64,000 nucleotides of DNA from assembly GCA_015065165.1 (NCBI GenBank), contig SVQU01000006.1, forward strand, positions 10,081 through 74,080, read 5' to 3'. The notes beneath the pieces were generated by a model. The model had not been told where the DNA came from. It searched no databases and saw only the letters and a program-made list of their open reading frames with translations. This DNA is from Oscillospiraceae bacterium (lineage in GTDB: Bacteria; Bacillota; Clostridia; Oscillospirales; CAG-382). Shown here in pieces: positions 6,943 to 59,237 of the stretch; position 1 is the first letter of the stretch, and the number at the start of each line of letters is the position of its first letter. Position numbers and translations under genes: made by a program.

Positions 6943-7083
6943 AGCACTACTCAAACTCAACTAACAGTAACTTCTAAATTCGATATATCAAATGGCAAAA
7001 TGCAAATATACGATTCATTTTATCACATCTATTAAAAAAATGCAATAAAAAAAGCGACGAAAACGTCGCTTTTTTGTTAAATA

Positions 7084-10313: not shown

Positions 10314-10519
10314 TATTCCTCGTCCTTTCTGACGTAAATACCCTTAAGACGCATAAAGTGGTTTGTCAAGCGTATTTCTTTTTCTTCATCGCAGGAATCG
10401 AAATAATGGCTATAACCCACTGTGTCCTTATAAACCGCGCGAGTTTCTGTGCGGTCGGACCACCGAATTATAACCTTATCACCCGAATCTAAAACAACTT
10501 CACCAACAAGATAGCTCAT
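10313..10519 (-). CDS. Small hypothetical protein, translationally coupled to the PHP gene
   Basis: Fills the operon gap; TAATG stop/start overlap. Confidence 0.55.
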   Translation of the reverse strand: MSYLVGEVVLDSGDKVIIRWSDRTETRAVYKDTVGYSHYFDSCDEEKEIRLTNHFMRLKGIYVRKDEE

Positions 10520-10542
10520 TAAATATCACCGTATTTTTCAAA

Positions 10543-11994: not shown

Positions 11995-12005
11995 AAAAAT
12001 CGGTA

Positions 12006-13490
12006 TTAATTATGGAAAAGTTTTTTAGATTGATATTGAGGCTCGCAGGTTAGGTTGATACCTAAACGCTTAAGCAGTTTTTCATCAACGTGCGAAAGAA
12101 TTACCGTAGAATGCATTTCGCTGCCCGCAAGCTTTTTAAGCTGGTCCAATGCAAGGCGTGCGTTAGGGTCTGTGCTTGCACAAACCGAAAGAGCGATAAG
12201 AATTTCATCGGTATGTAATCTGGGGTTTTGGTTACCCAAATGCTGTATTTTAAGCTCTTGGATAGGCTCGAATACCTCAGGGGATATAAGATAAATACTT
12301 TCATCAATACCCGCAAGCTTCTTTAGCGCATTCAACAGCATCGCACTGGAAGCGCCCAAAAGCGCGCCTGTTTTACCTGTGATTATAGTTCCGTCGGGTA
12401 ATTCTATTGCCGCCGCAGGCTCGTTGGTTTCCTTCGACCTATTCTGCGCCGCCGCAACAACCGCGCGGTCATCAACACTTATATCACACTGATTCATAAG
12501 AATTTCAAGCTTACGAACCGCCTCGTCCTCGCCCATTCCCTTACGTTGCTGACACAAAGCCTCGTAATAACGGCGGATAATTTCCTGCTTTGCGGCATCA
12601 CGGCACACTTCGTCATCGCAAATGGCGTTGCCTGCCATATTTACGCCCATATCGGTGGGCGATTTATAAGGAGATTCACCGTAAATACTGTTGAACATAG
12701 CGTTCAGCACAGGGAAAATTTCCACGTCGCGGTTATAGTTGACGGTTTGAACGCCATACGCCGCCAAGTGGTAAGGATCGATACAGTTAGAATCGTCCAA
12801 ATCGGCAGTAGCTGCCTCGTAAGCAATATTAACGGGGTGATTAAGAGGCAAATTCCAGATAGGAAAGGTTTCGAACTTTGCATAACCCGCTTTTATACCA
12901 CGTTTATGGTCATGATAAAGCTGAGAAAGGCAGGTTGCCATTTTGCCGCTACCGGGACCGGGGGCGGTTATAACAGCCAGTTTACGCTGGGTTTGGATAT
13001 ATTCGTTCTTACCAAAGCCCAAATCGCTTACTATATGCTTTACGTTAGAGGGATACCCCTCGATATTATAGTGCTTATACGTGGTAATACCAAGCTTTTT
13101 AAGCCTTTTCTTAAAGGCAACGACAGAGGGTTGGTTATTATATTGAGTGAGAACAACGCTTCCCACAAACAAACCGCAGGAACGGAAAGCGTCGATAAGA
13201 CGCAAAACGTCCTGATCATAGGTTATACCCAAATCGCCGCGAACCTTGTTCTTTTCGATATCCTTACTGTTAATGACGATAACTATTTCTGCCTCATCCT
13301 TAAGTGCAGTAAGCATTTCGATTTTGATGCTCGGTTTGAACCCGGGAAGAACGCGTGAGGCGTGATAATCGTCAAACAATTTTCCGCCGAATTCAAGATA
13401 GAGCTTACCACCAAATTGATGGATACGCTCACGGATATGACGGGTTTGTAATTCCACGTATTTTTCACAATCAAAGCCTTGTTTTCTCAT
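12006..13490 (-). CDS. DUF1846 (UPF0371) family protein
   Basis: KLYLEFGGKLFDDYHASRVLPGF, APGPGSGKMATC; start refined to ATG 13490 just after the HAD stop. Confidence 0.9.
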   Translation of the reverse strand: MRKQGFDCEKYVELQTRHIRERIHQFGGKLYLEFGGKLFDDYHASRVLPGFKPSIKIEMLTALKDEAEIVIVINSKDIEKNKVRGDLGITYDQDVLRLIDAFRSCGLFVGSVVLTQYNNQPSVVAFKKRLKKLGITTYKHYNIEGYPSNVKHIVSDLGFGKNEYIQTQRKLAVITAPGPGSGKMATCLSQLYHDHKRGIKAGYAKFETFPIWNLPLNHPVNIAYEAATADLDDSNCIDPYHLAAYGVQTVNYNRDVEIFPVLNAMFNSIYGESPYKSPTDMGVNMAGNAICDDEVCRDAAKQEIIRRYYEALCQQRKGMGEDEAVRKLEILMNQCDISVDDRAVVAAAQNRSKETNEPAAAIELPDGTIITGKTGALLGASSAMLLNALKKLAGIDESIYLISPEVFEPIQELKIQHLGNQNPRLHTDEILIALSVCASTDPNARLALDQLKKLAGSEMHSTVILSHVDEKLLKRLGINLTCEPQYQSKKLFHN

Positions 13491-13492
13491 AA

Positions 13493-14152
13493 CTACACCC
13501 CTGTGGTGGATAAATCCTTTATAATGTATTCCGCAAGTGCCGGAAAGGAGTTTAATATCTTTCTGCCCGAACTGTTCAAAGCCCTTTCGCTTTGATGTCC
13601 CACAGAAAGCAACACGCAATTCGCGCCTACTGCTTCGGCAACCTCGCTATCGTGGACCATATCGCCTACGAACAAGCATTTTTGCGGAGAAATATTGTTT
13701 GTTTTAACGTAATTCAAGGTACGCTCTACCTTACTGCCCACGTGGCAATCATCAGAGCCGAGAACCGCCGTGAAATGTCGGGATATGCCCAGTTTTTCCA
13801 GATAAGGTCTTATCAAAGCGTTTTTGTTGGAAGAAAATATGTATTGCTTAACGCCCATTTGGGAAAGCCTTTGAAGCGTTTCCTTTGCACCGTTATTTAA
13901 CGGAGATTCGCCGAGGTGAAAATCGTAAAAACGATTAAACTCAACGGATAAATCATTTATATTTTCTTTAGAAACATCCATAACCTTTTCGTAAAACTTA
14001 ATTATGGGAATATCTATATAATCACGGTATTGCTCGAAGGTTATTGATGGCAGATTTCTTGTTGCCAACATATCTAAAACAGCAAGATAGGACGCGTATG
14101 CATCGTCAAGCAACGTGCCGTTCCAATCCCAAAAAACGTGCGTTAAATTCAT
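13493..14152 (-). CDS. HAD family hydrolase (phosphoglycolate-phosphatase-like)
   Basis: WDWNGTLLD motif I, VGDMVHD motif IV. Confidence 0.9.
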   Translation of the reverse strand: MNLTHVFWDWNGTLLDDAYASYLAVLDMLATRNLPSITFEQYRDYIDIPIIKFYEKVMDVSKENINDLSVEFNRFYDFHLGESPLNNGAKETLQRLSQMGVKQYIFSSNKNALIRPYLEKLGISRHFTAVLGSDDCHVGSKVERTLNYVKTNNISPQKCLFVGDMVHDSEVAEAVGANCVLLSVGHQSERALNSSGRKILNSFPALAEYIIKDLSTTGV

Positions 14153-14306
14153 ATCAATCTCCTATTCGAGCATTTTAACATATTTTACATATTTTTTCAA
14201 CACTTTTATGCATTCAAAACACACAATTTTTTAACAAATTTTACCCGAAAGCTCTGAAAAGTTAAAACGTCCTGCAAAAAGCAGGACGTTTCGTTATTAC
14301 GTTTCT

Positions 14307-14594
14307 TTATTCTTTTTTCAGTGCGCGGTCCAACCAAATTGTACCGATATCAAACGCATCGAAGAAACTGCTCTTTTCGCACTGCTTAACTACTTTTTCG
14401 TTGAAAGAAATTTCGTCGTCGGTGTTTTGAATCTGAACCAAAACCTTTGTTGCAACCTCAAGATCGCCGATTTTCTTAGTATCCAGAATATTCATAAACA
14501 AAATGAATTTATCATCGGGATTACCATAGAAAACGAAGCGGCCCTGACGAACAAGAGGCTTGCCTTTATACATCAGTGTCTTTATTTCACCCAT
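14307..14594 (-). CDS. Hypothetical protein downstream of the IreB gene
   Basis: Clean ORF with RBS, operonic. Confidence 0.7.
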   Translation of the reverse strand: MGEIKTLMYKGKPLVRQGRFVFYGNPDDKFILFMNILDTKKIGDLEVATKVLVQIQNTDDEISFNEKVVKQCEKSSFFDAFDIGTIWLDRALKKE

Positions 14595-14600
14595 GGGAAA

Positions 14601-14897
14601 TCAACCTTTCTGTTTGCTGTCGACGTGGATGAAATCCTCTACGAGAATACGCAGAAGCTCATCGCGGTCGATTTTGGAAATTATTGCGCGAGAGTTGTTG
14701 TAGTTTGTGATATACGTAGGATCTTCGGAAATGATATAACCAACAATTTGGTTTATGGGGTTATATCCTTTCTCAACAAGGGAATCGTACACCGTTTGAA
14801 GCTGTACGCGCAATGACTCCTTATTTTGTTCTTTAACCGAGAACATTATAGTTTTTTGCTTTTTATCCACCGGTTTCTTTTTATCCTGCATTTTCAA
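14601..14897 (-). CDS. IreB/ReoM (UPF0297) regulatory phosphoprotein
   Basis: EKGYNPINQIVGYIISEDPTYIT...IDRDELL. Confidence 0.92.
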   Translation of the reverse strand: MKMQDKKKPVDKKQKTIMFSVKEQNKESLRVQLQTVYDSLVEKGYNPINQIVGYIISEDPTYITNYNNSRAIISKIDRDELLRILVEDFIHVDSKQKG

Positions 14898-45858: not shown

Positions 45859-46125
45859 ATGAAGATATTTAAAACCATGTTTTTCGTTAGTCTTGTTGTT
45901 CTTATCATTCTTCTTATTTTTGTTGCAACTGCAGTTGTTTCTGCTGTTTCTCTTGAAAACAGTAATACAGAAAGTGTCGCTATAATCGGCGGTGCCGACG
46001 GCCCTACCGCAATTTTGATTACCAGTACGCTTATTTTTGATCATCCGACGTTTAGATTGCTCATCTTGGTTGCGATTGTGTTTATCGTTTCTTCAGTTGG
46101 ATGGTTGGTAAGTCGAAAGAAGTAA
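45859..46125 (+). CDS. Small membrane protein with the OadB-type IIGGADGPTAI motif
   Basis: Two TM segments flanking AIIGGADGPTAI; RBS gagga. Confidence 0.7.
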   Translation: MKIFKTMFFVSLVVLIILLIFVATAVVSAVSLENSNTESVAIIGGADGPTAILITSTLIFDHPTFRLLILVAIVFIVSSVGWLVSRKK

Positions 46126-46147
46126 TTTTAGACGGTCAATATTATTT

Positions 46148-46189
46148 CGAGGTGTGGCGCAATGGTAGCGCGCTTGCTTTGGGAGCAAG
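46148..46189 (+). pseudogene. 5' half of host tRNA-Pro(UGG), ending at the left attachment core
   Basis: CGAGGTG TG GCGC AATGGTA GCGC G CTTGC TTTGGGA GCAAG, with no T-arm following. Confidence 0.92.
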
Positions 46190-46289
46190 TGATATTCCCC
46201 TACTTCACCAATTGCACAAAAGCCGAAACCCCTTGATTTCACTTGATTTTTTGTTGTTTTATTTTTTGTGTTTTTATCAAAAATGTGAT

Positions 46290-46315
46290 TTTGACCACAA
46301 TTTTGACCACAATTG
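46290..46315 (+). repeat. Tandem TTTGACCACAAT repeat, left (probable integrase arm site)
   Basis: tttgaccacaattttgaccacaattg, identical to 54774-54799. Confidence 0.75.
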
Positions 46316-46371
46316 ATTTACTTATTTATAAGCAATTTTCTACCATTATATATTATAATTTAATAATATTT

Positions 46372-46447
46372 CGGGGTGTAGCGCAGTTGGGAGCGCGCGA
46401 CATTTGGGATGTTGAGGCCGCAGGTTCGAACCCTGTCACTCCGACCA
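46372..46447 (+). tRNA. Complete island-borne tRNA-Pro(UGG) with encoded CCA
   Basis: Acceptor CGGGGTG/CACTCCG, D stem GCGC, anticodon stem CGACA/TGTTG with loop TTTGGGA, T loop TTCGAAC, ACCA end. Confidence 0.95.
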
Positions 46448-46471
46448 GAATAGCGGTTTTGACCGCATACG

Positions 46472-46504
46472 AAAGCCGCAAAGTAGGGATACTTTGCGGC
46501 TTTT
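46472..46504 (+). terminator. Terminator after the island tRNA
   Basis: aaagccgcaaagta-ggga-tactttgcggcttt(t). Confidence 0.75.
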
Positions 46505-46594
46505 CAAGTCTTGGAGGTTTATATGTGCATCTCGAAATATATATTTAGCAAAATCGGATTTATCATCAAGAAAAAAACTATTCGGAGGAAAATC

Positions 46595-47710
46595 GTGAAA
46601 AAACATAACTGGGTACAAAATATAAATTACAAAAAATTTATTGCACCATTTGAAATTAGTTCTGGTAATCAATATCTTTCCGAACTAAAGACTCTATTAG
46701 ACCTTTTTGTGGACGAACTAATAAATTGCAAAGCAGAAGAAACCATAGTTTCTGTTGCAAAACTTTACAGAGACAAAATTATTAATTCAATAGAACTGTA
46801 TTATCAAGGAAATATTATAGATGCCCAAAGCACTATAAATGAACTAATTGATGATTTTAGCGATGACTCCATTGCAATTTCGCATATTAATGACAGCATC
46901 GCCTTCCCTTCCCCGCGAAAGGGGGTTAAATCTGAGGTTCAATTCTTTAGAGCAAGACTTACCGAAAATGTAACAGATTTCCCTGCAAAAGATATGTTGC
47001 ACATTCCATTTTCCAAACGCGATATTGTAAAGGGTGAACGTTTTAGTATACCTGGATTACCTTGTTTATATTTGGCTAATTCAACATATACATGTTGGAT
47101 TGAAATGGGTTGTCCTGCAGATCATAAATTTAATGTATCGCCTGTTGTGTTAGACAATACTCAAAGAATTTTCAATCTAACTGTATCTATACGCGACCTA
47201 ATGGATTATACAACTATCGAAAACTCTGAAAACGACAACCATGAAGAGAGCATCATCGCCTTAATCAAGCTTTTAATGTTGTCGATGGGAACATCTTTCA
47301 ACGTAGCTTCAGGTAGTGATCGCAACTTCAAGGCTGAATATATACTGCCACAAATGATCATGTTAGCCTGCAAACATAGGAACCTGGATGGTGTTACATA
47401 CTATTCTAAGAAAGTTACAGATGATATTTTTGCACATGTTGTAGGTGTAAATTTAGTTTTGTTTGCATCTTATAACGGTGAAAAAGAACTTTCTAATATT
47501 TGCGAACATATTGAAATTAGCGATTCTTTTAATTATTCAATGTTTAAACAATTAATGCCGAGTTTGCTTTGCAAATCATACGATCTGCGTATATTAGATT
47601 CTCCATATATAACTAATATCGGTTCGTTCGACCGACAGTTCCCTTATCGAGAAACACAATTTTTCGCTTTTGATCAGTATTTATTTGCAAACTGGAACCG
47701 CGGGCACTAA
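46595..47710 (+). CDS. RES-domain protein
   Basis: FFRAR...ERFSIPGLPCLYLA...CWIEM...YILPQ...DGVTYYS (R/E/S layout); GTG start after ggagg. Confidence 0.75.
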   Translation: MKKHNWVQNINYKKFIAPFEISSGNQYLSELKTLLDLFVDELINCKAEETIVSVAKLYRDKIINSIELYYQGNIIDAQSTINELIDDFSDDSIAISHINDSIAFPSPRKGVKSEVQFFRARLTENVTDFPAKDMLHIPFSKRDIVKGERFSIPGLPCLYLANSTYTCWIEMGCPADHKFNVSPVVLDNTQRIFNLTVSIRDLMDYTTIENSENDNHEESIIALIKLLMLSMGTSFNVASGSDRNFKAEYILPQMIMLACKHRNLDGVTYYSKKVTDDIFAHVVGVNLVLFASYNGEKELSNICEHIEISDSFNYSMFKQLMPSLLCKSYDLRILDSPYITNIGSFDRQFPYRETQFFAFDQYLFANWNRGH

Positions 47711-47727
47711 AAAGGATTGAGAATAGA

Positions 47728-49014
47728 ATGAAAAAAGAAATCAAAAAATGTATTAAATACTATTTAAGAAATATCGATTCCGAGGCATTTCGGGAATACG
47801 TTAAAAAGTCCGAAGAAAATGGTACGAGAGTGCATCAAGAGTATATAAAAGAGAAAAAACCTCAATGGGCAAATCGCACTGATTATTTTGAGGAAAGCAC
47901 TATTGCTCGGATTATCATTGGAGATGTTTTATCTAATGATGGGGTTGTTAAACTTTTAAAGAAACTTTATGCACTACCCAAAAATAAATTTAAAGTAAAA
48001 AACTATTACAAAAAGCCACCTTTAAAAAACAAGTATGATTATATACGTCTTCAGTATACCCACTCCGGAATAGGTAGATTTGCAGAAATCGAATTTTTAG
48101 ATGATAAATATATCAAACGTATAGAAATCAGTTGGAGCCAAATCAATAATTATTTTGCTTTTATAGAGTATTCTTTTTGGTTCCATAAGTGTTTGGACGA
48201 AACACTCTACGGCAATTTCATTTCTGAAAACCTGCCTAAATTGACAAAAAAAGATTATATTACTTGGTATCACATAAAGAATGACAAAGAAGATAAATAC
48301 AAGGATAATTATATGGCGTTACAGCAAATGCACACTGAATTTTTCAATGTTGTTTGCCAACACTATATAACTACCCTGTTGTATAGTGAGCAAGGATCTA
48401 CTAATCTTCTATTAAACATTACATTTTTTGTGAGAGAGAAACCCATTGACATTTCGACCTTGTATATTAGTGATTTTGGGGAAGCGTTTTATAACCGAAA
48501 AGGGAATTACATTATAGTTAGTGATTTTCATGGCGATCGTCATTGTCTTTATTCTGGAAATAATAGGATTCCTAATTTTAATCCATGCGGATATATTTCT
48601 AAATACGGAAATGACTTTTACTATAAGTTTTTCGGAGAAAAAGAATTAAAGAATTTTGAATATGAATTTTCCAAATATACGAACGGAAGAACGAAAGCTA
48701 AATACAACAAAAAGATAATAAGACTTCTGAATAAAATTCAGAGTCTCTCTGATTACGAATATCCCAATTCTTCAAAATTTTACTCTGGTTTCAAAGAGTC
48801 TTGGGATTTCTATGTAGGTAACGAAACGGAAGATATCAAGAAATGGCATGGTAATAATCTGAAAAAAATCAAAAATATTTTCGAAAAGAACTTTGAATAC
48901 CTAAAGGTTCTTACCGAAATAAATTATACTCGGAGCAATCATTCGATATCCATTATTGCAGCTGTGATTTCTGTGGTAGCAACGATCATATCATTAGTAG
49001 CTATTTTTGTGTGA
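47728..49014 (+). CDS. Uncharacterised protein with single C-terminal TM helix
   Basis: 428-aa ORF 17 bp after the RES gene; ends ISIIAAVISVVATIISLVAIFV. Confidence 0.8.
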   Translation: MKKEIKKCIKYYLRNIDSEAFREYVKKSEENGTRVHQEYIKEKKPQWANRTDYFEESTIARIIIGDVLSNDGVVKLLKKLYALPKNKFKVKNYYKKPPLKNKYDYIRLQYTHSGIGRFAEIEFLDDKYIKRIEISWSQINNYFAFIEYSFWFHKCLDETLYGNFISENLPKLTKKDYITWYHIKNDKEDKYKDNYMALQQMHTEFFNVVCQHYITTLLYSEQGSTNLLLNITFFVREKPIDISTLYISDFGEAFYNRKGNYIIVSDFHGDRHCLYSGNNRIPNFNPCGYISKYGNDFYYKFFGEKELKNFEYEFSKYTNGRTKAKYNKKIIRLLNKIQSLSDYEYPNSSKFYSGFKESWDFYVGNETEDIKKWHGNNLKKIKNIFEKNFEYLKVLTEINYTRSNHSISIIAAVISVVATIISLVAIFV

Positions 49015-49064
49015 TTTTCAAAATCCTTTTCTTTGTTTACTCCGAACTAACCATTGAGGGCGCC

Positions 49065-49600
49065 TTAATCGGCGCCCTCTTTTAGTTTTGCTTTTTCTTC
49101 CTCTATTTCCGCTTTCTTGATTTTTATCATTTCGTCGAGCTTTTGTTCACATTCTTCAAGCGAATGTGTGTAGACGTTACAAGCAACTCTTTTGCCTTGT
49201 GCGTTGGTGGGCGTGTATCTACCTTCCCACAAGTTTTCTCCGATTCTATAGATTCCACCAGTTCCGCTTCTTCTTATTTTACCTTTATATGGCTTAAACT
49301 CCACTTTCACGGGAGCTTTAGAATCTTCTATTGCCGTTATTTCAATTTCACTTTCTTCTATTATGGTGTCACTTCTGCACATATGTGCATCAATTTTCAT
49401 CGCTGCATTATTAAGCATTTCGTTTGTAATGTGGCTATATATATCCAACGTTGTTGACGATGACTTATGTCCTATAATTCGGGAGAGTGTTTTTATATCC
49501 ATACCGTGTTCGAGAGCCATCGTAGCGAAGGTATGACGCAAATCGTGGAATCGTATTCTCTTGCAATCTGATCTTTCCAATATCTGCTGACATTTTCTAT
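49065..49600 (-). pseudogene. 5'-truncated tyrosine integrase
   Basis: RFHDLRHTFAT, IIGH, DIYSH catalytic motifs present; N-terminal part missing. Confidence 0.88.
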
Positions 49601-49627
49601 ATAAATGATACCAAACAAATACTTCCA

Positions 49628-49933
49628 ATGAATGATAATAGATATAGCATTAGTTTTAAAGAAAAAGAACATTTTACTAAACTAATCTTTGGGGTTCCCA
49701 TCAAAGATGTTTGCGAAGGAAAAATTGTTTCCCCAACCATAAGAAAATTTAACAAATCATTCGTTTTTAAAGGAAGTAATGCAATTGTTGTTATTAGTAA
49801 TAACAAATATACCTTCATGCACGACAACATAAGCATCGAATTTGCATTAAATGATGTTTTTAAAAAATTATCTAACAACACTATGCTTCAACAACAGCAA
49901 ATCTCTTGCTGTAGTAAGCGACTTGGATTCTGA
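49628..49933 (+). pseudogene. AT-rich gene fragment between the integrase and RHS remnants
   Basis: Open frame without a clear RBS; abrupt compositional junctions at both ends. Confidence 0.35.
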
Positions 49934-52900
49934 AGCTTATGCCTGCCAAACTATTAACGTGAAGAAAGAAGATTCTACACGCCAAACCTTTACCCTTTCC
50001 GGTTGGGCAAAAGGCGAAGGCATCATTGATCGTGAACGCGAAGCGTGTGAAAAGCCCTCGTTCTGTTTGCGTGCATGTATCAACTACAAATCCGGCGAAT
50101 GTGAAGAACATATTGCAGAATTTTCGCCTTGCACTGATGGTTGGCAGTTTGCTTCGGTTGAATTCGCAAAGGAAAAATTCTGCGCTGTCGAGTCGATAAA
50201 GGTTTATTGCGACTATAGCAACAACGTCGGTACTGCATACTTTGACAATATTCAGCTTGTTTGCAACTCTATCGAAACCGAACTTTTTGCAGACGACTTT
50301 ACAACCATCAGCGAAGACTACTCCGCAGACGAAGATACCGCAGAAGATACTTTCAATCCGGGCTTTAGCACCGAAGCAGAAGAAACTGATAGTGCGCCCG
50401 AATTCGAAGAAGCAAGAGATCCTCACGGTAATCCCTTCACCGAAACCAATTTTGTAGATGGCGAATTCGGTACAATCTATCGCTCGTTTAAATACTACAA
50501 CGATATGGATCATATCGGCAACGACCTCACTTGCGAAACCGACCCCAGAGGTAACGAAACCAAATATGATGTAAATACAAATACTTCCAAAAACAACGCT
50601 GTTATCGACCGTTGCGGTAATAAAACCGAATACGAATATGACAGATTCGGTGAAGTATCTAAGGTAACCAGCTTTGAAAAAATCGGCGTAGATGACGAAG
50701 GTAATCCCATCTATCATCCCCTCGCAGACGTTTCCTATGCGTATTGCGAATTCGGTCAATTAGGAATGATCTCCCGTGGCGACGGCATGAAATATAACAT
50801 CGATTATGACGAATTCAATCAACTTCAGGCGATCGGTATCAAGGGTAAGCCCGAAAAGCTTGTAAAATATGATTACAAGACCGGTTCCGGCAGACTTAAA
50901 TCCGTAACCTATGCAAACGGTAACGTTATGTATGCTACCTACAACAGCATTGGTCAGATGATAAGCGAAACCTGGAAAGATACTGAAGACGGCAACATTA
51001 TTGCATATTATAAATATGTTTATGACGGCAGCGGTAATATCGTAAGAAGCCTTGACATAGTTTCGGGAATTGAGTATACTTATACCTACGAGGAAGGCAG
51101 AATTGTTCGTGCTACCGAAACTGTTGTTATCTATGACAGCAACTGTATCGCGGTTTCCAGAGGAGATACAAACACCATATTCTACAGCTATAATAACGAA
51201 GGTCAGCTTGTTAAAAAGCGTGTCGTTACTTCTGATGGTGCTGAACGTATCACCTACTATGAGCACAACGATGACAACACAATCGTTAAGTTCTCCGCAG
51301 GCGGTTTGAATGCCACTGCTCACAGCAAAACTGACGGTTTCGGCAGAAAGATTTTCGACGAAGTGCAGACCGGCAGAGGCTTTGTTTCCAGACAGTTTAG
51401 TTACCACGCAGGTGCTGTAACCGACGCTCACAAAGATTCGGACAAAGTTAAGTCCTCGCCTACCACACAGCTTGTAAGCCGTATTGAGCTTTCCGACGGC
51501 AGATCCCTTTCCTATGAATACGATGCTGAAGAACGCATCACCTCTGTTGTTGAGTCTTATGCTGTTGACGGTCAGCCTGTTACCAATACCATTCTTTACA
51601 CTTACGATGCACTTGGTCAGCTTCTTACCGAAACGGTTAACGGTGTTGTAGTGAATGAAATGACCTATGACAATTACGGCAACATTCTTACCAAAAACGG
51701 CAAGATTTACACCTATGGCGATTCTGTTTGGAAGGATAAGCTTACCGCAATCGATGGTCAGGCTATTACCTATGATGCACAGGGCAACCCTGTTTCTTAT
51801 CTCGGCCATGATTTGACGTGGGAGAAAGGCAGACAGCTTAAATACTTTGATGGTGTTTCTTACACCTACAATGCAAACGCCATTCGTACTTCTAAAACCG
51901 TCAATGGTGCAAAGCACACCTATATCTTAGACGGCACCAAGATTCTTCGTGAACATTGGATGGAATGCGCCACACCGCACACTATTACTCCTTTGTATGA
52001 TAACGAAGACTCTGTTTGCGGTATCGACTACGGTAATCATACCTTCTATTTCTTGAAGAACCTTCAGGGCGACGTTATTGCCATCGCAGACATCGAGGGC
52101 AATGTTGTTGGTCGTTACTCCTACGATGCTTGGGGCGTACCTACCATTACTCAAGATAGCTCCTTCACAGTATGGGAAAAAGGCGTTGAGTTATATTCGT
52201 TCAATATTGCAGAAGTTAACCCCTTCCGTTACCGTGGTTATTACTATGATAACGAAATTGGTTTGTACTATCTCCAAAGTAGGTATTACAACCCTGTAAC
52301 TGGTAGGTTTGTGAATGCGGACATTCCTGAAATAATCGTCTTACATGGTAGATATTCTTTAAATGTAAACATGTATGCATATTGCAATAACGATCCAGTT
52401 ATTGGCAACGATCCTATGGGAATGCTTGATGCAGCTGGCGCCGCAAGTTGGCTGAATGCAACTGATGTATTCAACATGTATGCACAAGACCTGTATACAG
52501 CTTATGCAGCAACTTTAACTAAAATTGGATTATATATAACAGCGTTTCTTACTCCTAAAGTAAGCGCAGCTTTTTGGTGGCAACCTTGGCTTATTGCAGG
52601 CATAGTGGTCGCAGCTGTTGCAATAGTAATTGCTTCTGTTGCAATTATATATAATGCTAAAGTAAAGGAAAGAGAAAGAGAAAGACAAAAGTACCTAACG
52701 TCTGATAAAACGCTTTCTGATGTCAAGTTAAAACTGCAGTCCGGCAAGCATTATCACTTAGCCTATATTAGCAAGCAAGGCGAGTTATATAAAACCGGAA
52801 ATAAAATGACCTTTGTTCAAGCTTTAATTGCATTAGGTATAACTGGTGCTGTTAACAGCATTACACGTAGGTACAAATACGACAAAACCAAATCTTCCAC

Positions 52901-53099
52901 TGCCCAACGAACTCTCGAACATAAAGGTAATAGACAATGGGGCATATACGCTGATACTCAATCGGCTGCAAAAGCATTAGCTGTTGTTTTGGGTTCGTCA
53001 GAAAAACCCAAAGTGCATGGTTCGGGATATTATGGCCACTATCATGATTTTACACACACTTTCCATATATGGTATGGTGGTAAAATCATATATAAATAA
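49851..53099 (+). CDS. RHS/YD-repeat polymorphic toxin (WapA-like), probably N-terminally truncated
   Basis: YD repeats, NPFRYRGYYYD, RYYNP..GRF, NMYAYC..DP...DPMG core end, then TM segment and His-rich tip; no signal peptide or RBS. Confidence 0.88.
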   Translation: MMFLKNYLTTLCFNNSKSLAVVSDLDSEAYACQTINVKKEDSTRQTFTLSGWAKGEGIIDREREACEKPSFCLRACINYKSGECEEHIAEFSPCTDGWQFASVEFAKEKFCAVESIKVYCDYSNNVGTAYFDNIQLVCNSIETELFADDFTTISEDYSADEDTAEDTFNPGFSTEAEETDSAPEFEEARDPHGNPFTETNFVDGEFGTIYRSFKYYNDMDHIGNDLTCETDPRGNETKYDVNTNTSKNNAVIDRCGNKTEYEYDRFGEVSKVTSFEKIGVDDEGNPIYHPLADVSYAYCEFGQLGMISRGDGMKYNIDYDEFNQLQAIGIKGKPEKLVKYDYKTGSGRLKSVTYANGNVMYATYNSIGQMISETWKDTEDGNIIAYYKYVYDGSGNIVRSLDIVSGIEYTYTYEEGRIVRATETVVIYDSNCIAVSRGDTNTIFYSYNNEGQLVKKRVVTSDGAERITYYEHNDDNTIVKFSAGGLNATAHSKTDGFGRKIFDEVQTGRGFVSRQFSYHAGAVTDAHKDSDKVKSSPTTQLVSRIELSDGRSLSYEYDAEERITSVVESYAVDGQPVTNTILYTYDALGQLLTETVNGVVVNEMTYDNYGNILTKNGKIYTYGDSVWKDKLTAIDGQAITYDAQGNPVSYLGHDLTWEKGRQLKYFDGVSYTYNANAIRTSKTVNGAKHTYILDGTKILREHWMECATPHTITPLYDNEDSVCGIDYGNHTFYFLKNLQGDVIAIADIEGNVVGRYSYDAWGVPTITQDSSFTVWEKGVELYSFNIAEVNPFRYRGYYYDNEIGLYYLQSRYYNPVTGRFVNADIPEIIVLHGRYSLNVNMYAYCNNDPVIGNDPMGMLDAAGAASWLNATDVFNMYAQDLYTAYAATLTKIGLYITAFLTPKVSAAFWWQPWLIAGIVVAAVAIVIASVAIIYNAKVKERERERQKYLTSDKTLSDVKLKLQSGKHYHLAYISKQGELYKTGNKMTFVQALIALGITGAVNSITRRYKYDKTKSSTAQRTLEHKGNRQWGIYADTQSAAKALAVVLGSSEKPKVHGSGYYGHYHDFTHTFHIWYGGKIIYK

Positions 53100-53120
53100 T
53101 CTCAAATGAGGATAATTCAT

Positions 53121-53522
53121 ATGCAATGTTATGAAATGCTTTTACCATATTTTAGATATTATAGAGATGAAGAAACATCTGATAACTTTTCGTGGTGGTT
53201 CTGTGTTTTAGATGAAAATATATACGAAACCAATGATATATACAAAGAATTTGGTTACACTTCAATATGCGACATTTGCGATTCGGGCAAATTCATCGAA
53301 TTATACAAAGTAGATATTATTGAAACCAAAAAAGTATTTTTAAAGCAGTATCATCCAAAAAGTCAAATTTTGAACATTGAACATGACGGAGAATTCGATA
53401 TTGCCTTTAACTCATTTATAGAAACCAGTTCCAGTTTAGATACATGGCAGGAATATGAAAAAGCTGTATTAGAATCAGCTCTATTGAAATGGAGTTCAGA
53501 TAATAATATCATAATTTATTAA
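53121..53522 (+). CDS. Putative cognate immunity protein
   Basis: Small acidic ORF directly after the RHS stop; RBS gagga. Confidence 0.6.
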   Translation: MQCYEMLLPYFRYYRDEETSDNFSWWFCVLDENIYETNDIYKEFGYTSICDICDSGKFIELYKVDIIETKKVFLKQYHPKSQILNIEHDGEFDIAFNSFIETSSSLDTWQEYEKAVLESALLKWSSDNNIIIY

Positions 53523-53702
53523 ATTAATCTATGACACTAATAAGTTTTTAGTTTTGGTATGGGAATGATATTATGGTCATTTCGAACATTGTATATTAAC
53601 GAATAATAACTCATTATTTTGACATAATATTTGCAATTTTCATTCCAATGTGATATAGTGTTTTCATAGTAGAACACACTATATCACATTCGGGGGATTT
53701 CT

Positions 53703-54089
53703 ATGAAAATCAAAACTATTGCTTTGTTACTTGTTGCGGTATTATGCTTTTCTTTAACTGCGTGCGGCGAAAGTGAAGCTAAACGTCCAATTGATTACCC
53801 AAACAGCAAATGGTCTTGCGATGTTGCCAGTATCACTTTTTCGGTATCGGATGATGGAAAAATCATCGATGCAACTATGGTAGATAAAGACGACAACACG
53901 TTGCCGATTTCAATTGTTTTTTCTGATACCGATGAAAACAAGGTAACCATAACCAATGCTGATGAAACCGAAACATATCTTTCCGGCACTTTTACATCCA
54001 GCAAAGACAAGTTCGTGATAACAGTAACCGATATTTACAATACGAATCTTAGTATTTCTTCCAGAAGTTTGATATTCAAACGTTCATAA
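53703..54089 (+). CDS. Lipoprotein
   Basis: Signal with lipobox LTAC. Confidence 0.8.
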   Translation: MKIKTIALLLVAVLCFSLTACGESEAKRPIDYPNSKWSCDVASITFSVSDDGKIIDATMVDKDDNTLPISIVFSDTDENKVTITNADETETYLSGTFTSSKDKFVITVTDIYNTNLSISSRSLIFKRS

Positions 54090-54240
54090 CTCAAAAAAGA
54101 ACCATCTGTTCAATCTCGAACAGATGGTTCTTATTATTTTTACCGCATAGTTTTAATATTTGAATGATACTTATTATACTCTTGAAATTTCACAAATAAA
54201 TGTTATAATATTATAAATCGACGACAATACTGAGGTTCTT

Positions 54241-54729
54241 ATGAAAGTTTCTGAATTAAGGCTTAATGATATAAAAGAAGTTAACGGTTCTATTAAATCA
54301 TTAAAAACCAAAGAAATTATCAATAAAATAACGCTGAGTTTTGATATTTCTTCAAGAAAGAAACTTGCCAAGTTATTTATTTGCAATATTGTTACACCAG
54401 ATGTGCAAAATTTGTGTATCGAACAATTATCTATAGAACAATCCGGGAACGAACTATTAACCAGAGGTCAATCTTCTTATGTCGATACCAAAACAGGATT
54501 TGTTTTATTTCCTCAAAGAACTTCCCCGCCCCACTTCGAAGCAACATTTCAAGCTAAAACGGCATCAACTACAGATACACAACGCTGTTACGATATAGAA
54601 ATGAATTTCGGCGATTTTTCATTCGACTTTTCAACCTCAGAAAAAATCGAACATGCCGATAAAATAATCTATAAAAATGTAAACTTGCTGATTCACCCTA
54701 GCGACAATATAGTAAAGGTTTTGGAATAA
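54241..54729 (+). CDS. Hypothetical protein
   Basis: RBS gaggt; TTGAAA-16-TATAAT promoter at 54182-54209. Confidence 0.65.
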   Translation: MKVSELRLNDIKEVNGSIKSLKTKEIINKITLSFDISSRKKLAKLFICNIVTPDVQNLCIEQLSIEQSGNELLTRGQSSYVDTKTGFVLFPQRTSPPHFEATFQAKTASTTDTQRCYDIEMNFGDFSFDFSTSEKIEHADKIIYKNVNLLIHPSDNIVKVLE

Positions 54730-54773
54730 GTTTCTTAACCATGTGTATCCATTATATGTAATTTTGATTTTTG

Positions 54774-54799
54774 TTTGACCACAATTTTGACCACAATTG
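54774..54799 (+). repeat. Tandem TTTGACCACAAT repeat, right (probable integrase arm site)
   Basis: Identical to 46290-46315. Confidence 0.75.
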
Positions 54800-54916
54800 T
54801 AACCCGAACAGAAAAAACAAACGGAATATATGTTTCAAAAATGCGAATTTTTGGCTGGAAAACATAACGAAAAGAGCCAAAATAATGCTTTTTTACCCAA
54901 AAAATGTTCTCGGAGC

Positions 54917-54963
54917 GCTTTGGGAGCAAGATGCTGCAGGTTCGAGTCCTGTCACTTCGACCA
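54917..54963 (+). pseudogene. 3' half of host tRNA-Pro(UGG), starting at the right attachment core
   Basis: GCTTTGGGAGCAAG ATGCT GCAGG TTCGAGT CCTGT CACTTCG ACCA; pairs with the 46148 half; terminator follows (54964-54998). Confidence 0.92.
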
Positions 54964-55024
54964 AAAAGGCTCAGGAAGTATTGTTTCCGGAGCCTTTTCT
55001 ATGTTTGACTTTCATACCTACCTA

Positions 55025-55053
55025 TTGCTAAATAGCCGCTGTTGTGATATAAT
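55025..55053 (+). promoter_or_regulatory. Sigma-A promoter TTGCTA-17-TATAAT at the head of the membrane-gene array
   Basis: Consensus spacing with extended -10. Confidence 0.65.
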
Positions 55054-55069
55054 TAAATGAGGTGATTAT

Positions 55070-55465
55070 ATGAACAAAACACATAAAATTATGATATTCA
55101 TCAAATTTGTTTTATTGGAATGTTTAATGTACGTATGCGCATTATTAAGTATAATATGTTATGCTGGTGGTTTTTATATTGATATATTAAATACTATAAT
55201 CGCAATAATCCTTGCACATGTAGGATATAAATTCACAACCGGGATTATTGATATCACATTTGTGTATATCAATTTATTGTTATCGGTTTATATAGGTTCA
55301 AAATATCAAACATTACTGTACTATAATAACATAAGCTCCGATCCACTAACATTAGTTGCTGGTGATACATTTATGCGCATTGCATTTATTACCACATTTG
55401 TATTTGTTATTTTGTTTATGATGATTAGAATTGTAAAGGTAATTAAAGCAAATAAATGTGTATGA
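55070..55465 (+). CDS. Small multi-pass membrane protein
   Basis: About 4 hydrophobic segments; RBS gaggtga. Confidence 0.7.
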   Translation: MNKTHKIMIFIKFVLLECLMYVCALLSIICYAGGFYIDILNTIIAIILAHVGYKFTTGIIDITFVYINLLLSVYIGSKYQTLLYYNNISSDPLTLVAGDTFMRIAFITTFVFVILFMMIRIVKVIKANKCV

Positions 55466-55586
55466 ATTTGATTATTCATCTAATTTTGTTTACACAAACA
55501 AGACAAGGCTAAACCTCATATCAACTACTTTAATAATTGATATCTTGTTGTTATTAGCGATTAACTATCTTGAACTCGTAAATAGT

Positions 55587-55652
55587 TTTCATAGCGATAT
55601 GCCTCACAGACAATGCGTTCTTGAAAAAGTTTATTCGTACTTGCAACTTTAA
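55587..55652 (+). pseudogene. Orphan gene 3' tail, copy 1 (FHSDMPHRQCVLEKVYSYLQL*)
   Basis: Homologous to 57647-57712 at the protein level. Confidence 0.55.
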
Positions 55653-55686
55653 ATTCCTTTATTACAACAGGAGAATGTAACATCAT

Positions 55687-56538
55687 ATGAAAATTTTCAA
55701 CATTTTGAAAACTGACAAAAAATATATAAAGTCGATATATGGTTTACTAATATTCCAATTGTATATCGCCATACTATATTGGATAGACGATAATCCAAGC
55801 AATAGCTATATATATATAATAGTGCATCCAATATTCTCGGCTATTTATGGTTGTACGTCTTTTCTTTCTTCCAAAAAAGTAATAGTTCCAAACTTGATTT
55901 TGGTAGTATGTACCATTCCTTTTTGTTATATTATCGAGTTGCTCTTTGATGATAGGATGCCGTTTTTATCTATATTAGGTCCTATCGTTTCTTTAATATT
56001 TTCATTGTTAATGAAGCTCGCGGTATATATTTCAAACAAATCAACCCAATCTCCTCAACCAATACAATCCCAAAAGACGGCGCAATTATATCAAGCACCG
56101 CAAATAACACAATCGAACAAACCAACGCAATCCGCAAAACGTGCTAAATATCTATTTCTATGTGTATATGCAGTCGCTGTGCTTGTAAGCTACGTTATTT
56201 ACATTTTTGGCGATGATGTGGGTTCTATAACACGCATTGTATCTATAATACGCGTTGTATATTGGGCTCTTTACGTGGTATCAATCTTTCCTTTACTCGC
56301 TGTTGGATACGGTATTTTTGCGTATTTACAAACCAAACGGGTTTGGTTGCCCAATTTGTGCCTATTTGTACTGTTTTTAACCTTGACGATTATTTTAGAA
56401 ATGACCAATACCTACTATGATATGCCAAATGGGTTCTGGATGTCTGTTTTACTGTTTATTATATCCACCGTATCTTCGTTAATTACAAAGGTTGTGGTTA
56501 AACGTAAAATGCGCAGTGAAGAACAGAGCGATGAATAG
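55687..56538 (+). CDS. Membrane protein with an internally duplicated multi-TM domain
   Basis: AIYGCTSFLSSKKVIVPNL and AVGYGIFAYLQTKRVWLPNL halves joined by a Q/T/S/P-rich linker. Confidence 0.75.
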   Translation: MKIFNILKTDKKYIKSIYGLLIFQLYIAILYWIDDNPSNSYIYIIVHPIFSAIYGCTSFLSSKKVIVPNLILVVCTIPFCYIIELLFDDRMPFLSILGPIVSLIFSLLMKLAVYISNKSTQSPQPIQSQKTAQLYQAPQITQSNKPTQSAKRAKYLFLCVYAVAVLVSYVIYIFGDDVGSITRIVSIIRVVYWALYVVSIFPLLAVGYGIFAYLQTKRVWLPNLCLFVLFLTLTIILEMTNTYYDMPNGFWMSVLLFIISTVSSLITKVVVKRKMRSEEQSDE

Positions 56539-56568
56539 GATTTATAATAGAATTTTTTATGTTATATC

Positions 56569-56630
56569 TTTCTGTTGTATAGACTTTTAAGTTAGGTACT
56601 TCTTTGAGGTATCAAATTGACAGAGGGCTA
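56569..56630. repeat. 62-bp intergenic direct repeat, copy 1
   Basis: 60/62 identical to 58251-58312. Confidence 0.9.
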
Positions 56631-56743
56631 TCTACTTTTATCAATACCTTAAAAAATACCGCACAACGAATACTTGATTTTGTAAAAGCTTTGATATGGG
56701 ACAGCATGATCAAAGCCTTTGCGCTCTGTGGTTGAGGAAATAT

Positions 56744-57238
56744 ATGTACAATCAATATGAAAATGTGTTACATGGCGTTTTGCGATATGAGCAAACACAA
56801 AATTCTATAATTATAATTTCGTCTATACTGATCTTTGCATTAGTTTTCTTTGTGGCGTTCAAATATACTCCCAAAGCAACTACTAACAAATTAATTATGT
56901 ATATCGTAATTGCAATTTTAGTTTTATCTTTTATCGGCTATATTATCTATTATTGGGTTTACACATCTAACATAGAAAAGGATATAGAAGATAAAAATTA
57001 TGTTGTTTATTCGGGAACATTTACGCATGATAACTTTCAAAAAGATTCCTTTTATCATAACATTTATATATTCGACGATGATGGACATAAATATAGACTA
57101 AATTATCCCGATTACGGAAATCAATATAAAACTTATCGAGAATTTGAAATATTACCATTCGATACCTTTAACGGAACAATAGTTTATACCAAAAATAGTA
57201 GAATCGTTTTAGAATGGTCGATAAGTAATGATGAATAA
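56744..57238 (+). CDS. Two-TM membrane protein with soluble C-terminal domain
   Basis: RBS gagg before ATG 56744. Confidence 0.7.
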   Translation: MYNQYENVLHGVLRYEQTQNSIIIISSILIFALVFFVAFKYTPKATTNKLIMYIVIAILVLSFIGYIIYYWVYTSNIEKDIEDKNYVVYSGTFTHDNFQKDSFYHNIYIFDDDGHKYRLNYPDYGNQYKTYREFEILPFDTFNGTIVYTKNSRIVLEWSISNDE

Positions 57239-57343
57239 CACATCTTCATAATTGATAGAACCACTAATATTATTCATAGAGCAAATTATTGTAACAATGC
57301 CACACTAATTCTTGTTTAGCTTGAACATCAAAAGGAGACGAAT

Positions 57344-57620
57344 ATGACCAAAACACAGAAAACGGTTATAAATATCATAACAATACTATTGCTTAACGTT
57401 GCTTTTTGGATATGTAACGATTATCCGCGCCATCTTTTGGAATTTGGCGAGGTAACGTCGGGCTTGTCGATTTTTCTTAATCTGTTGTATTTCGCCTTTT
57501 TCTATTACTTTGTGATTTTGGCGTTTAAACGCAACGAAACCCTGTTTTCCAACCGCTTTTGAGACGAAAAAACGGCAATAAAGTTTCTTCCCCTTTTACT
57601 TATTATCCAGCTTGTTTTTG
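57344..57620 (+). pseudogene. Membrane-protein pseudogene with premature TGA
   Basis: Good RBS; hydrophobic frame continues past TGA 57560-57562 (DEKTAIKFLPLLLIIQLVF). Confidence 0.55.
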
Positions 57621-57646
57621 ATGGCGGAAATGAATATTGGGATCTT

Positions 57647-57712
57647 TTTCATTCAAAAATGCCTCACAGAGAATGTGTTCTTTCAAAAGTAATGGAATGT
57701 CTATTAATTTAA
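57647..57712 (+). pseudogene. Orphan gene 3' tail, copy 2 (FHSKMPHRECVLSKVMECLLI*)
   Basis: Homologous to 55587-55652. Confidence 0.55.
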
Positions 57713-57739
57713 TATAGTATTTTTACGGAGTACTAACTT

Positions 57740-58192
57740 ATGAGAAAAAACATAGAAATAATAAACAAAAAATACAAAATGTTCTATATAATCTTTACTT
57801 TCATAAATGGTTTAGCATTTGCTGGTATTGCAAGCGGTGGCGACCTAGGAATGATGCCCATTTTAGTTCTTTTCTGGATTTTTTCCTTTTTGATTGCTAT
57901 TTTTCATGGGTATATAACTTATGCTAAAATTCATTCGTTTTTTATACCACATTTGTGTTTTTACATTTCTTGGGTTGTTTCACTATTGCCACTTATGTTT
58001 TTGCTTCCGAAAGAGGATATTGATGACTTAATTGATATTTTCCAGATAGCGTCTATTTTCTTGTTGATTTCTTGCATCGGAGCGTTGATAGCTAAAATAG
58101 TGATGATAATTAAAAGAACTAATATATCAAAAGTTAGTGAAATCATTTCTAAGGTTGAAGAAACAACATCAAGCGACACCGATTCAGATTAA
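57740..58192 (+). CDS. Multi-TM membrane protein, likely paralogue of the 55687 domain
   Basis: AIFHGYITYAKIHSFFIPHLC motif; RBS ggag. Confidence 0.7.
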   Translation: MRKNIEIINKKYKMFYIIFTFINGLAFAGIASGGDLGMMPILVLFWIFSFLIAIFHGYITYAKIHSFFIPHLCFYISWVVSLLPLMFLLPKEDIDDLIDIFQIASIFLLISCIGALIAKIVMIIKRTNISKVSEIISKVEETTSSDTDSD

Positions 58193-58250
58193 ATAGATAG
58201 TTAGCAATGTAATCAATTCTAAAATAAATGTTTGTTAGCTTATAGTCTAT

Positions 58251-58312
58251 TTTCTGTTGTATAAACTTTTAAGTTAGGTACTTATTTGAGGTATCAAATT
58301 GACAGAGGGCTA
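58251..58312. repeat. 62-bp intergenic direct repeat, copy 2, running into a hairpin (58307-58338)
   Basis: See copy 1; gggctactg...cagtagccc stem. Confidence 0.9.
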
Positions 58313-58379
58313 CTGACACCTAATGGGCGCAGTAGCCCCTTGTTGAAAAGAAATTGAATATTAAAGCAGATAATAACGG

Positions 58380-58613
58380 TTACTTGTAAAAGAACCGTTT
58401 TTTCTGTATGCATAGACGTAAAACATTTGAGTTATCTTGACAATTTGGGCATTTTCGAAGCCATACATCGCAACCGTTTGCCATGTATTTATGTCCGCAA
58501 TCGAGGCATTCCATTTCAAAAAATTTCTGGTTATTGTGAGTTTCGGACATTCCTCTGTATCCGAGATTCTTTTGATTATTTTTGTTTATATATCCTTCGT
58601 CTGTTGTTTTCAT
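58380..58613 (-). CDS. Small zinc-ribbon-like protein
   Basis: CxxC...CxxC; RBS aaggag. Confidence 0.7.
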   Translation of the reverse strand: MKTTDEGYINKNNQKNLGYRGMSETHNNQKFFEMECLDCGHKYMANGCDVWLRKCPNCQDNSNVLRLCIQKKRFFYK

Positions 58614-58634
58614 ATTGTTTTATCTCCTTGTTGC

Positions 58635-59237
58635 TTACATATCCATCAAAGGCAAGCGGAAAATCATAATTCGTTCTCTACTGTCGTTACCGTCAAAAAG
58701 GTCGCCACAGTCTATTTCGTCGTAAAATTCCAGCTCGTTCACCGTGGTAAGGTAACACATATACTCGCTTGATGGATAATAGAAAAACAAAAACATTTCC
58801 CTTGGGGCGGTATAATAGGATTCGATAATTCTTGCCATAACCGAACGAAGAATCTCCACGGAAAATGGGTTGAAGAAATAGCACCTATTGACATCTTGCG
58901 GAACTTCGAATTCTTCTGCACGAGTGGCTACAAAATCTGCCTTTGCTCTTGCCGTTTTTAGATTTCCTATGGCACGGGCATAAATTCGCTCGTCGTATTC
59001 AATTCCTATGGTCTTGGCTTTCGCCTGATACGAGAGGAAAAAGGAGACACGACCTTTCCCACAGCCATAGTCCAAAACCACATCGCCCTTACGAATAAAT
59101 CCACTGTTCGCCAAGCGTTCCAAAACACAGTAGGGCGTTGGCTCGTAGGGATAACGGTACATGTCAGCATTGCTGTCATCCCGACCGCTTGTTTTTATGT
59201 TTAACAGCTTGTCCCATGCATTTTCGTTATCTATCAT
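58635..59237 (-). CDS. Class I SAM-dependent methyltransferase
   Basis: YEPTPY, LDYGCGKGR, FFNPF. Confidence 0.88.
   Translation of the reverse strand: MIDNENAWDKLLNIKTSGRDDSNADMYRYPYEPTPYCVLERLANSGFIRKGDVVLDYGCGKGRVSFFLSYQAKAKTIGIEYDERIYARAIGNLKTARAKADFVATRAEEFEVPQDVNRCYFFNPFSVEILRSVMARIIESYYTAPREMFLFFYYPSSEYMCYLTTVNELEFYDEIDCGDLFDGNDSRERIMIFRLPLMDM

Follow-up and report, generated by a model that had tools for sequence, protein, structure and literature searches.

A 64-kb stretch of Oscillospirales DNA (the window, to whose positions all coordinates refer) holds, between 46148 and 54963, a tRNA-Pro(UGG) gene that is cut in two by an 8.7-kb island, which carries a complete tRNA-Pro(UGG) gene of its own. 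The window comes from a 42-contig draft assembly (G000) that is 97% complete. On the forward strand, the orphan 5' part of the resident gene (46148-46189) consists of the acceptor 5' strand, the D arm and the entire anticodon stem-loop, while the orphan 3' part (54931-54963) holds the variable loop, the T arm, the acceptor 3' strand and CCA. The latter is followed on the same strand by the terminator hairpin of the resident gene (54964-54998; RNAfold, -16.7 kcal/mol), which is 82-87% identical to the stretch 3' of tRNA-Pro in three relatives (G002, G014 and G018).

A first-pass annotation, made from the sequence alone, had proposed that the two parts join into a canonical tRNA-Pro(UGG), that a 14-bp core is duplicated at both ends, and that neither junction rebuilds a tRNA; all three observations held. 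When 46100-46189 was fused in silico to 54931-55010, ARAGORN recognized the product as a tRNA-Pro(tgg) cloverleaf of 75 nt that ends in CCA, and the joined halves are identical at 75 of 75 positions to the intact tRNA of two genomes of the same genus (G016 and G005), so the uninterrupted form of the gene exists. The common core, GCTTTGGGAGCAAG, includes TTTGGGA, the 7-nt anticodon loop, and lies on the forward strand at 46176-46189 (the left attachment site, attL) and again at 54917-54930 (the right attachment site, attR). ARAGORN found no tRNA in the attL piece (46100-46300) or in the attR piece (54800-55010). The Rfam tRNA model gave 31.3 bits at attL (46148-46236), against a threshold of 29 bits; this marginal match is without a T arm, skips a 33-nt insert where that arm belongs, and ends in a weak, chance-like 3' acceptor strand with 6 of 7 pairs. 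As it passes the Rfam threshold, the broken gene at 46148-46236 might be annotated as a pseudo-tRNA by pipelines. We also considered trans-joining of the halves, as occurs with split tRNAs in some archaea, and rejected it: the sequence that follows the 5' half is not complementary to the one that precedes the 3' half, and the interruption is an integrase-bearing island.

The replacement tRNA and possible host dependence on it

The intact tRNA-Pro(UGG) that the first-pass annotation had placed about 180 bp inside the left end is indeed a different gene from the one that was split. Located at 46372-46447 on the forward strand, 182 nt inside attL and 56 nt after the left arm repeat, it has the same orientation as the broken gene, with which it shares 58 of 76 positions. 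It is 76 nt long, with C1-G72, A73 and an encoded CCA, scores 61.6 bits with Rfam, and is the single tRNA that ARAGORN reports in the whole window. The proposal that this gene has its own promoter and terminator stands in part: a TATAAT lies upstream at 46354-46359 and a strong hairpin, likely a terminator, follows on the forward strand at 46471-46504 (RNAfold of 46448-46510, -30.3 kcal/mol), while the promoter scan stayed at chance level and a strict terminator scan flagged nothing, this hairpin included. The island tRNA is presumably expressed.

Across the genome, the count of tRNA genes is 36, and those for proline have the anticodons CGG, GGG and UGG, the last of these present once, as the island copy. 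A short-BLAST search of the assembly with half-tRNA queries returned no Pro(UGG)-like pieces beyond the two orphans, which leaves the island copy as the sole UGG gene assembled. By standard wobble rules, GGG and CGG tRNAs do not read CCA. In 458 long open reading frames (ORFs) of the genome, CCA accounts for 548 of 9434 proline codons (5.8%), and demand for tRNA-Pro(UGG) is therefore low, not zero. Proline codon use in these ORFs is strongly skewed, with CCC at 58.6%, CCT at 29.4%, CCG at 6.2% and CCA at 5.8%. The targeted tRNA serves a rare codon, and its brief loss during integration may be tolerable for this reason. As the assembly offers no second tRNA-Pro(UGG), the data are consistent with the idea that the host would depend on the island copy for CCA decoding.

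Putative attachment arms and a truncated integrase of a double-arm family

The 182 nt between the attL core and the island tRNA (46190-46371, forward strand) form the left arm, on the P' side, and bear no likeness to a tRNA 3' half. Within this arm, at 46290-46315 on the forward strand, lies a 26-nt repeat, TTTGACCACAATTTTGACCACAATTG, which is made of two tandem copies of TTTGACCACAAT. The right arm, on the P side (54774-54811, forward strand), holds the same repeat in the same orientation at 100% identity, together with a third, degenerate copy. The repeats stand about 100 nt inside the attL core and 118 nt before the attR core, and GACCACA-type motifs (TTGACCACA in most) occupy the matching spacer position in related elements. 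This is the layout of arm-type integrase sites around the core of an element's attachment site (attP), and the repeats are accordingly putative arm sites.

The only recombinase in the island is a truncated tyrosine integrase, a 194-codon open frame on the reverse strand (49065-49649) that matches positions 112-170 of the 172 in the Pfam profile. It aligns to approximately residues 318-484 of 484-aa relatives, that is, to their last 167 or so residues, at 55-62% identity. The remnant keeps the His-x-x-Arg and Tyr motifs and a C-terminal arm-binding-like domain, and is without the N-terminal two thirds, where full-length relatives have the remainder of the catalytic domain. Elsewhere in the assembly, no integrase of the 484-aa family was found. 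Because the integrase is a C-terminal fragment only, the island looks fixed, and from its gene content it is most likely immobile. Some 200 bp separate the truncated end of the integrase from the start of an RHS toxin gene, whose arrival may have destroyed the integrase. The earlier suggestion that dependence on the tRNA stabilizes the neighboring cargo needs correcting in this respect: with a dead integrase fragment and no family copy in the assembly, what keeps the cargo in place is that the means of excision are gone, irrespective of any part that addiction may have.

In Oscillospirales, full-length members of this family have 484 aa and comprise an N-terminal arm-binding domain, a SAM_3 core-binding domain, the catalytic domain and the C-terminal arm-binding-like extension. 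The last 70 or so residues are a paralogue of the N-terminal domain, with 36% identity over 50 aa (E 8e-9). A companion tyrosine integrase of about 400 aa usually lies directly upstream, in tandem. Examples are found on the reverse strand at L029:1486-2940 and, for a tandem pair, at L058:12143-13597 and 13561-14760. We know of no description of an integrase with an arm-binding-type domain at both ends, no search aimed at this architecture having been made. Some long-form relatives adjoin other tRNAs, namely Ala(CGC), Thr(GGU) and Val(GAC), at loci L103, L106, L112 and L104, and shorter relatives of the integrase (40-45% identity) adjoin Met(CAT)-Leu(TAA) and Arg(ACG), at loci L122, L125, L132, L135 and L139 and at L134 and L142.

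Recurrence of the arrangement across Oscillospirales

The arrangement of a 5' half, a full tRNA-Pro and an integrase, which the first-pass annotation had suggested looking for in other genomes, recurs in two collections: genome_contigs, which consists of Oscillospirales and includes cultured strains, and IMG/VR. Halves of tRNAs in these loci were located with ARAGORN and with short-BLAST searches that used half-tRNA queries. The recurring order is at least one orphan tRNA-Pro 5' half ending in TTTGGGA, a spacer of about 150 nt, a complete tRNA-Pro, variable cargo and a convergent integrase. The spacers contain GACCACA-type motifs, mostly in the form TTGACCACA, and genomes of the same family are among those that show this design. 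Usually, one to four stacked orphan 5' halves stand upstream of the delivered tRNA-Pro. Full-length elements are present in cultured bacteria, among them Clostridiales bacterium CCNA10 and Ruminococcus intestinalis NSJ-71.

In genome_contigs, the match reaches the C-terminal extension of the integrase at 56 of 80 loci, and 30 of these 56 have a convergent tRNA-Pro (22 UGG, 7 CGG and 1 GGG), accompanied by at least one orphan 5' half at 23 of the 30. For IMG/VR, 37 of the 42 returned loci were examined; 24 hold a tRNA-Pro(UGG), and 21 of those 24 have one to four orphan 5' halves. The element-adjacent tRNA fits the tRNA-Pro(UGG) 3'-half pattern in all ten genomes checked, and is the sole match in seven of them.

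Relatives bounded by both tRNA halves

Four further elements are bounded by both halves of a tRNA gene: a tandem pair in Clostridiales bacterium CCNA10, IMG/VR locus L170, GenBank record MT835887.1, and genome G014. The genome of CCNA10 is finished, and in it a 61-kb tandem pair splits the native tRNA gene. On the left, 5' half A is separated by a 31-nt spacer from 5' half B, which is followed by a second spacer, containing an arm repeat, and by tRNA C. The first element, of 22 kb, comes next and has an integrase of the 484-aa type and a second integrase; the arm repeat recurs at its other end, so that the two ends match. Then follow a loop, another 31-nt spacer, tRNA D and a 39-kb element with a 381-aa integrase. 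The far end consists of a loop and an orphan 3' half, the stem of which pairs with A, the outermost of the 5' halves. The two parts of the native gene thus lie 61 kb apart, and each of the complete tRNA genes belongs to an element. At the junction between the two elements, the order is P arm, loop, 31-nt spacer and full tRNA; the bare 3' half that would be expected there is absent.

At locus L170 (approximately 9326-12404), an element of 3,078 bp lies between halves that pair into a tRNA. This element is minimal, consisting of a tRNA-Pro(UGG), a spacer with arm motifs and one integrase only. In MT835887.1 (locus L199; 2240-2542 and 15539-15620), a 13.2-kb element separates halves that join into a canonical tRNA-Pro(CGG) and carries a tRNA-Pro(AGG), so that the replacement anticodon differs from that of the target. 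Proline tRNAs with A34 are unusual in bacteria. In the three fully bounded tRNA-Pro(UGG) cases (the window, L170 and CCNA10), the cargo anticodon equals that of the target every time. For G014, the displaced 3' half is found on a separate contig and pairs with the inner orphan 5' half, and the incoming tRNA is of the type that is the victim in the window. The left flank of the island in the window, marked by a small OAD-beta-like ORF, runs directly into the tRNA in G005 and G014, and the gene is intact in G005.

Cargo of the island and of its relatives

On the forward strand, the island tRNA is followed by genes for a 399-aa RES-domain protein (46511-47710; Pfam PF08808, E 1.5e-05; PHROG 7835, function unassigned) and for a 428-aa protein without a family match (47728-49014). 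Beyond the integrase remnant, and also on the forward strand, lie the gene for the RHS-repeat toxin of 1082 aa (49851-53099) and three small ORFs of 138, 128 and 162 aa with no confident family (53106-54729). The G+C content of the RHS stretch (49650-53522) is 0.43-0.44, compared with 0.31-0.36 in the remaining island. From its position alone, the 138-aa ORF downstream of the RHS gene may be the RHS immunity gene. With PADLOC, the 162-aa ORF gave a weak Cas8b match (E 3e-4), and there was no match for the 138-aa and 128-aa ORFs or for the RES, RHS and 428-aa proteins. Scans of island proteins with Pfam, PHROGs and NCBIfam revealed no family of phage structural or lysis proteins. A search for the island elsewhere with the RES protein yielded four metagenome loci with homologues of 43-61% identity, and these loci contain no tRNA, no integrase of the island's family and no homologue of the 428-aa neighbor.

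In relatives, the slot between tRNA-Pro and the integrase holds other genes. G016 has a PD-Lambda-1 protein (E 3e-146) and a TIR-like protein there (L026:4720-6000 and 6098-7006), and G018 has a ThsA-like SIR2 protein (L021:15491-16885). As these slots hold anti-phage defense genes, such elements act as small defense islands.

Outside the island, the 4 kb or so at 54964-59200 is low in G+C (0.28-0.33) and contains ORFs of 131, 283, 180 and 150 aa with no confident family. This stretch may be the remnant of an older insertion at the same tRNA.

Proposed mechanism and alternative explanations

We consider it highly probable that an 8.7-kb integrative island entered a tRNA-Pro(UGG) gene at its anticodon loop through a tyrosine integrase, brought a replacement tRNA with it, and later became fixed. 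The "disrupt and replace" strategy put forward in the first-pass annotation is thereby supported, by the anatomy of the island as well as by the regular design of its integrase family. In this scheme, the island (46190-54930) would have entered the resident gene by recombination catalyzed by the tyrosine integrase, with strand exchange probably within TTTGGGA, the only sequence common to all sites. The attP site would share just 14 bp with the target, comprising the 7-nt loop with 2 and 5 flanking bases, and would contain no tRNA 3' half, so neither junction would rebuild the gene. Decoding of CCA would be restored by the complete foreign tRNA-Pro(UGG) just past the P' arm, which, being co-oriented and 182 nt inside attL, would take over the chromosomal position of the old gene; its transcription could start at its own TATAAT or, by read-through, at the old promoter. 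The integrase would later have lost its N-terminal two thirds beside the RHS toxin module, leaving the island fixed. Each delivered tRNA would also offer a fresh loop for the next element, which would explain the stacks of 5' halves; part of the stacking probably also stems from unequal exchange between loops or from alternative excision.

Several findings weigh against this interpretation. Relatives were checked for an empty, intact site, and the check succeeded for the identical intact gene (G016 and G005) and for the left flank (G005 and G014), while no relative on its own is syntenic with the window on both sides of an intact gene. On the right, G016 regains synteny only near 59,258, which makes the DNA between 54964 and about 59,200 a further variable stretch. 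The promoter scan of 46000-46700 returned 3 sites where 2.5 are expected by chance. With only 36 tRNAs in the assembly, and for example no tRNA-Ile, a second UGG gene could lie in unassembled DNA. Of the 56 loci in genome_contigs, 26 are without tRNA-Pro: 10 of these have less than 1.7 kb of downstream sequence, 12 have a flank of 3-10 kb and no tRNA-Pro, and 4 have another tRNA first (Ala-CGC twice, Thr-GGU and Val-GAC). Orphan 3' halves are far fewer than 5' halves, appearing in 4 of 80 genome_contigs loci and 1 of 37 IMG/VR loci, and four of five same-family assemblies have none. Simple serial integration fits this scarcity only if the far ends have frequently been lost by deletion, lie beyond 10 kb or were left out of the bins.

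The source being a 42-contig draft also counts on this side, as it gives some room to an assembly artefact, in which a chimeric contig or a repeat collapse at the 14-bp core or another tRNA-like sequence would have separated halves that are not truly 8.7 kb apart. We regard this as extremely unlikely: repeats as short as 14 bp do not mislead assemblers, the 26-nt arm repeats stand at both ends in the expected geometry, and the bounded architecture is found both in a finished genome (CCNA10) and in independent public records (L170 and MT835887.1). Moreover, 96-97% of the sampled words of the whole stretch are present in each of six sequencing runs, which possibly belong to one campaign or include the source sample. 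It is also very improbable, in our judgment, that this is an ordinary island that once restored its tRNA, with a restored 3' half that has since decayed and a nearby tRNA that is unrelated cargo, such as a codon-usage helper. Islands that target tRNAs do mostly restore the gene, according to the part of PMC4383910 available to us, and the marginal Rfam score of 31.3 bits at attL could be read as a trace of such a half. However, no T arm directly follows the core, and dozens of related elements have the loop, an immediate GACCACA-type spacer and a complete tRNA-Pro at about 150-200 nt, a conserved design that independent decay would not produce. The agreement of cargo and target anticodons in all three bounded UGG cases argues in the same direction, with MT835887.1 (CGG target, AGG cargo) as the exception.

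A different objection concerns the relatives, since it accepts the single integration in the window as real and holds that serial replacement elsewhere is overstated, the stacks of 5' halves arising instead from integrase-mediated unequal exchange or alternative excision between TTTGGGA loops and traveling with the elements. This explanation gains from G145, which has three identical 5' halves at an exact spacing of 200 bp with near-identical spacers, from the CCNA10 junction, where the missing 3' half fits integration into an attL loop or an element with an extra unit, and from the scarcity of orphan 3' halves in general. In G069, G014 and G141, though, the stacked 5' halves and spacers are of differing types, as separate events would give, and 5' and 3' orphans pair correctly in G014 and CCNA10. 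On balance, we find this account of the stacks possible yet rather doubtful.

Possible turnover of the tRNA-Pro(UGG) gene

The island tRNA is identical at 75 of 76 positions to the tRNA of two genomes from another genus. In eight genomes of the window's own genus, tRNA-Pro(UGG) comes in seven versions, and the very same sequence can occur in more than one genus, a pattern in which the gene appears to move between genera. A broader view, which we hold with about even confidence, is that tRNA-Pro(UGG) of Oscillospirales is in effect a gene of mobile elements. Elements as small as 3.1 kb, with no more than a tRNA and an integrase, would repeatedly destroy the resident copy and install their own, each delivered tRNA becoming the next landing site and the orphan 5' halves forming a dated record of invasions. 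Variable defense and toxin cargo would gather between the tRNA and the integrase, and the tRNA sequence of a species would reflect its last invader, not its ancestry.

The island and its relatives extend a mechanism demonstrated so far only in actinobacteriophages to non-phage islands of gut Firmicutes, and the data suggest that it is able to drive the turnover of a translation gene that is likely indispensable. Stacked orphan halves could provide a readable invasion history at one locus. The integrase may suit many hosts, since its attachment site needs little beyond an anticodon loop and the tRNA comes with the element; integration vectors built on it would have to include that tRNA, in line with the phage results. 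Annotation is affected too: programs that look for a restored tRNA and a 3' fragment overlook such islands, and the tRNA that they call may be foreign.

Comparison with known systems

In canonical tRNA and tmRNA islands of the Islander type, as far as the available part of PMC4383910 describes them, a tyrosine integrase, a tRNA target and a displaced fragment at the far end are found, as they are here. In those islands, however, attP includes the 3' part of the tRNA, and the junction nearest the integrase restores the gene, whereas the island in the window has no such part, restores the gene at neither junction and supplies a whole one. The strategy itself is already known, having been shown experimentally in actinobacteriophages in 2024. 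In that work on tRNA-dependent lysogeny (Guerrero-Bustamante and Hatfull, mBio 2024, PMC10865867; cited here from its available text), which covers Fionnbharth (K4), Cluster L phages, Gaia and others, a short core leads to no rebuilt tRNA, and the cognate phage tRNA is required for viable integrants.

The likeness extends to most features that can be compared with the available account. The phages use a tyrosine integrase and a bacterial attachment site (attB) inside a host tRNA gene; the island has a split tRNA gene and an integrase remnant, whose family presumably catalyzed the insertion. The phage cores measure 8-17 bp and the island core 14 bp, and in both cases the common core is so short that no tRNA is rebuilt, leaving no functional tRNA at either junction. 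Putative arm-type sites flank the attP core, and a cognate tRNA is carried on the element (46372-46447 in the window). Judged by the criteria for tRNA-dependent lysogeny in that text, the island shows the three that can be read from sequence and, not being a prophage, lacks that of being a temperate phage. As for the need of integrants for the element's tRNA, the single UGG gene of the assembly and the use of CCA codons are consistent with it.

The differences are equally clear from the same source. The published cases are phages of Actinobacteria that target Lys(TTT), Ile2(CAT) and Leu(CAA) tRNAs, whereas the element described here is an 8.7-kb island without phage structural genes, from a relative of Oscillospirales gut bacteria, and targets Pro(UGG), with CGG in some of its relatives. 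The tRNA of Fionnbharth overlaps a distant gene on the opposite strand; that of the island abuts the P' arm and is co-oriented with the broken gene. In the integrase family of the island, an arm-binding-like domain is present at the C-terminus as well, and most members have a companion integrase. The requirement for the element's tRNA was established by experiment in the phages and is presumed for the island. Lj965 of Lactobacillus johnsonii, a Firmicutes prophage that does not rebuild its target tRNA on integration and encodes a cognate one (via PMC10865867), is a possible case outside the actinobacteriophages; it is a prophage, and the island is small and is not one.

The available text of PMC10865867 makes no mention that we found of stacked orphan 5' halves, tandem elements or tRNA sharing across genera. 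Our literature search, which did not extend to the supplements of that paper and the details of attachment sites that they possibly hold, found no description of such a system in Oscillospirales. Beyond the known strategy, what appears to be new here is its use by a non-phage element, the serial stacking at one locus, and a tRNA gene that seems to move between genera.

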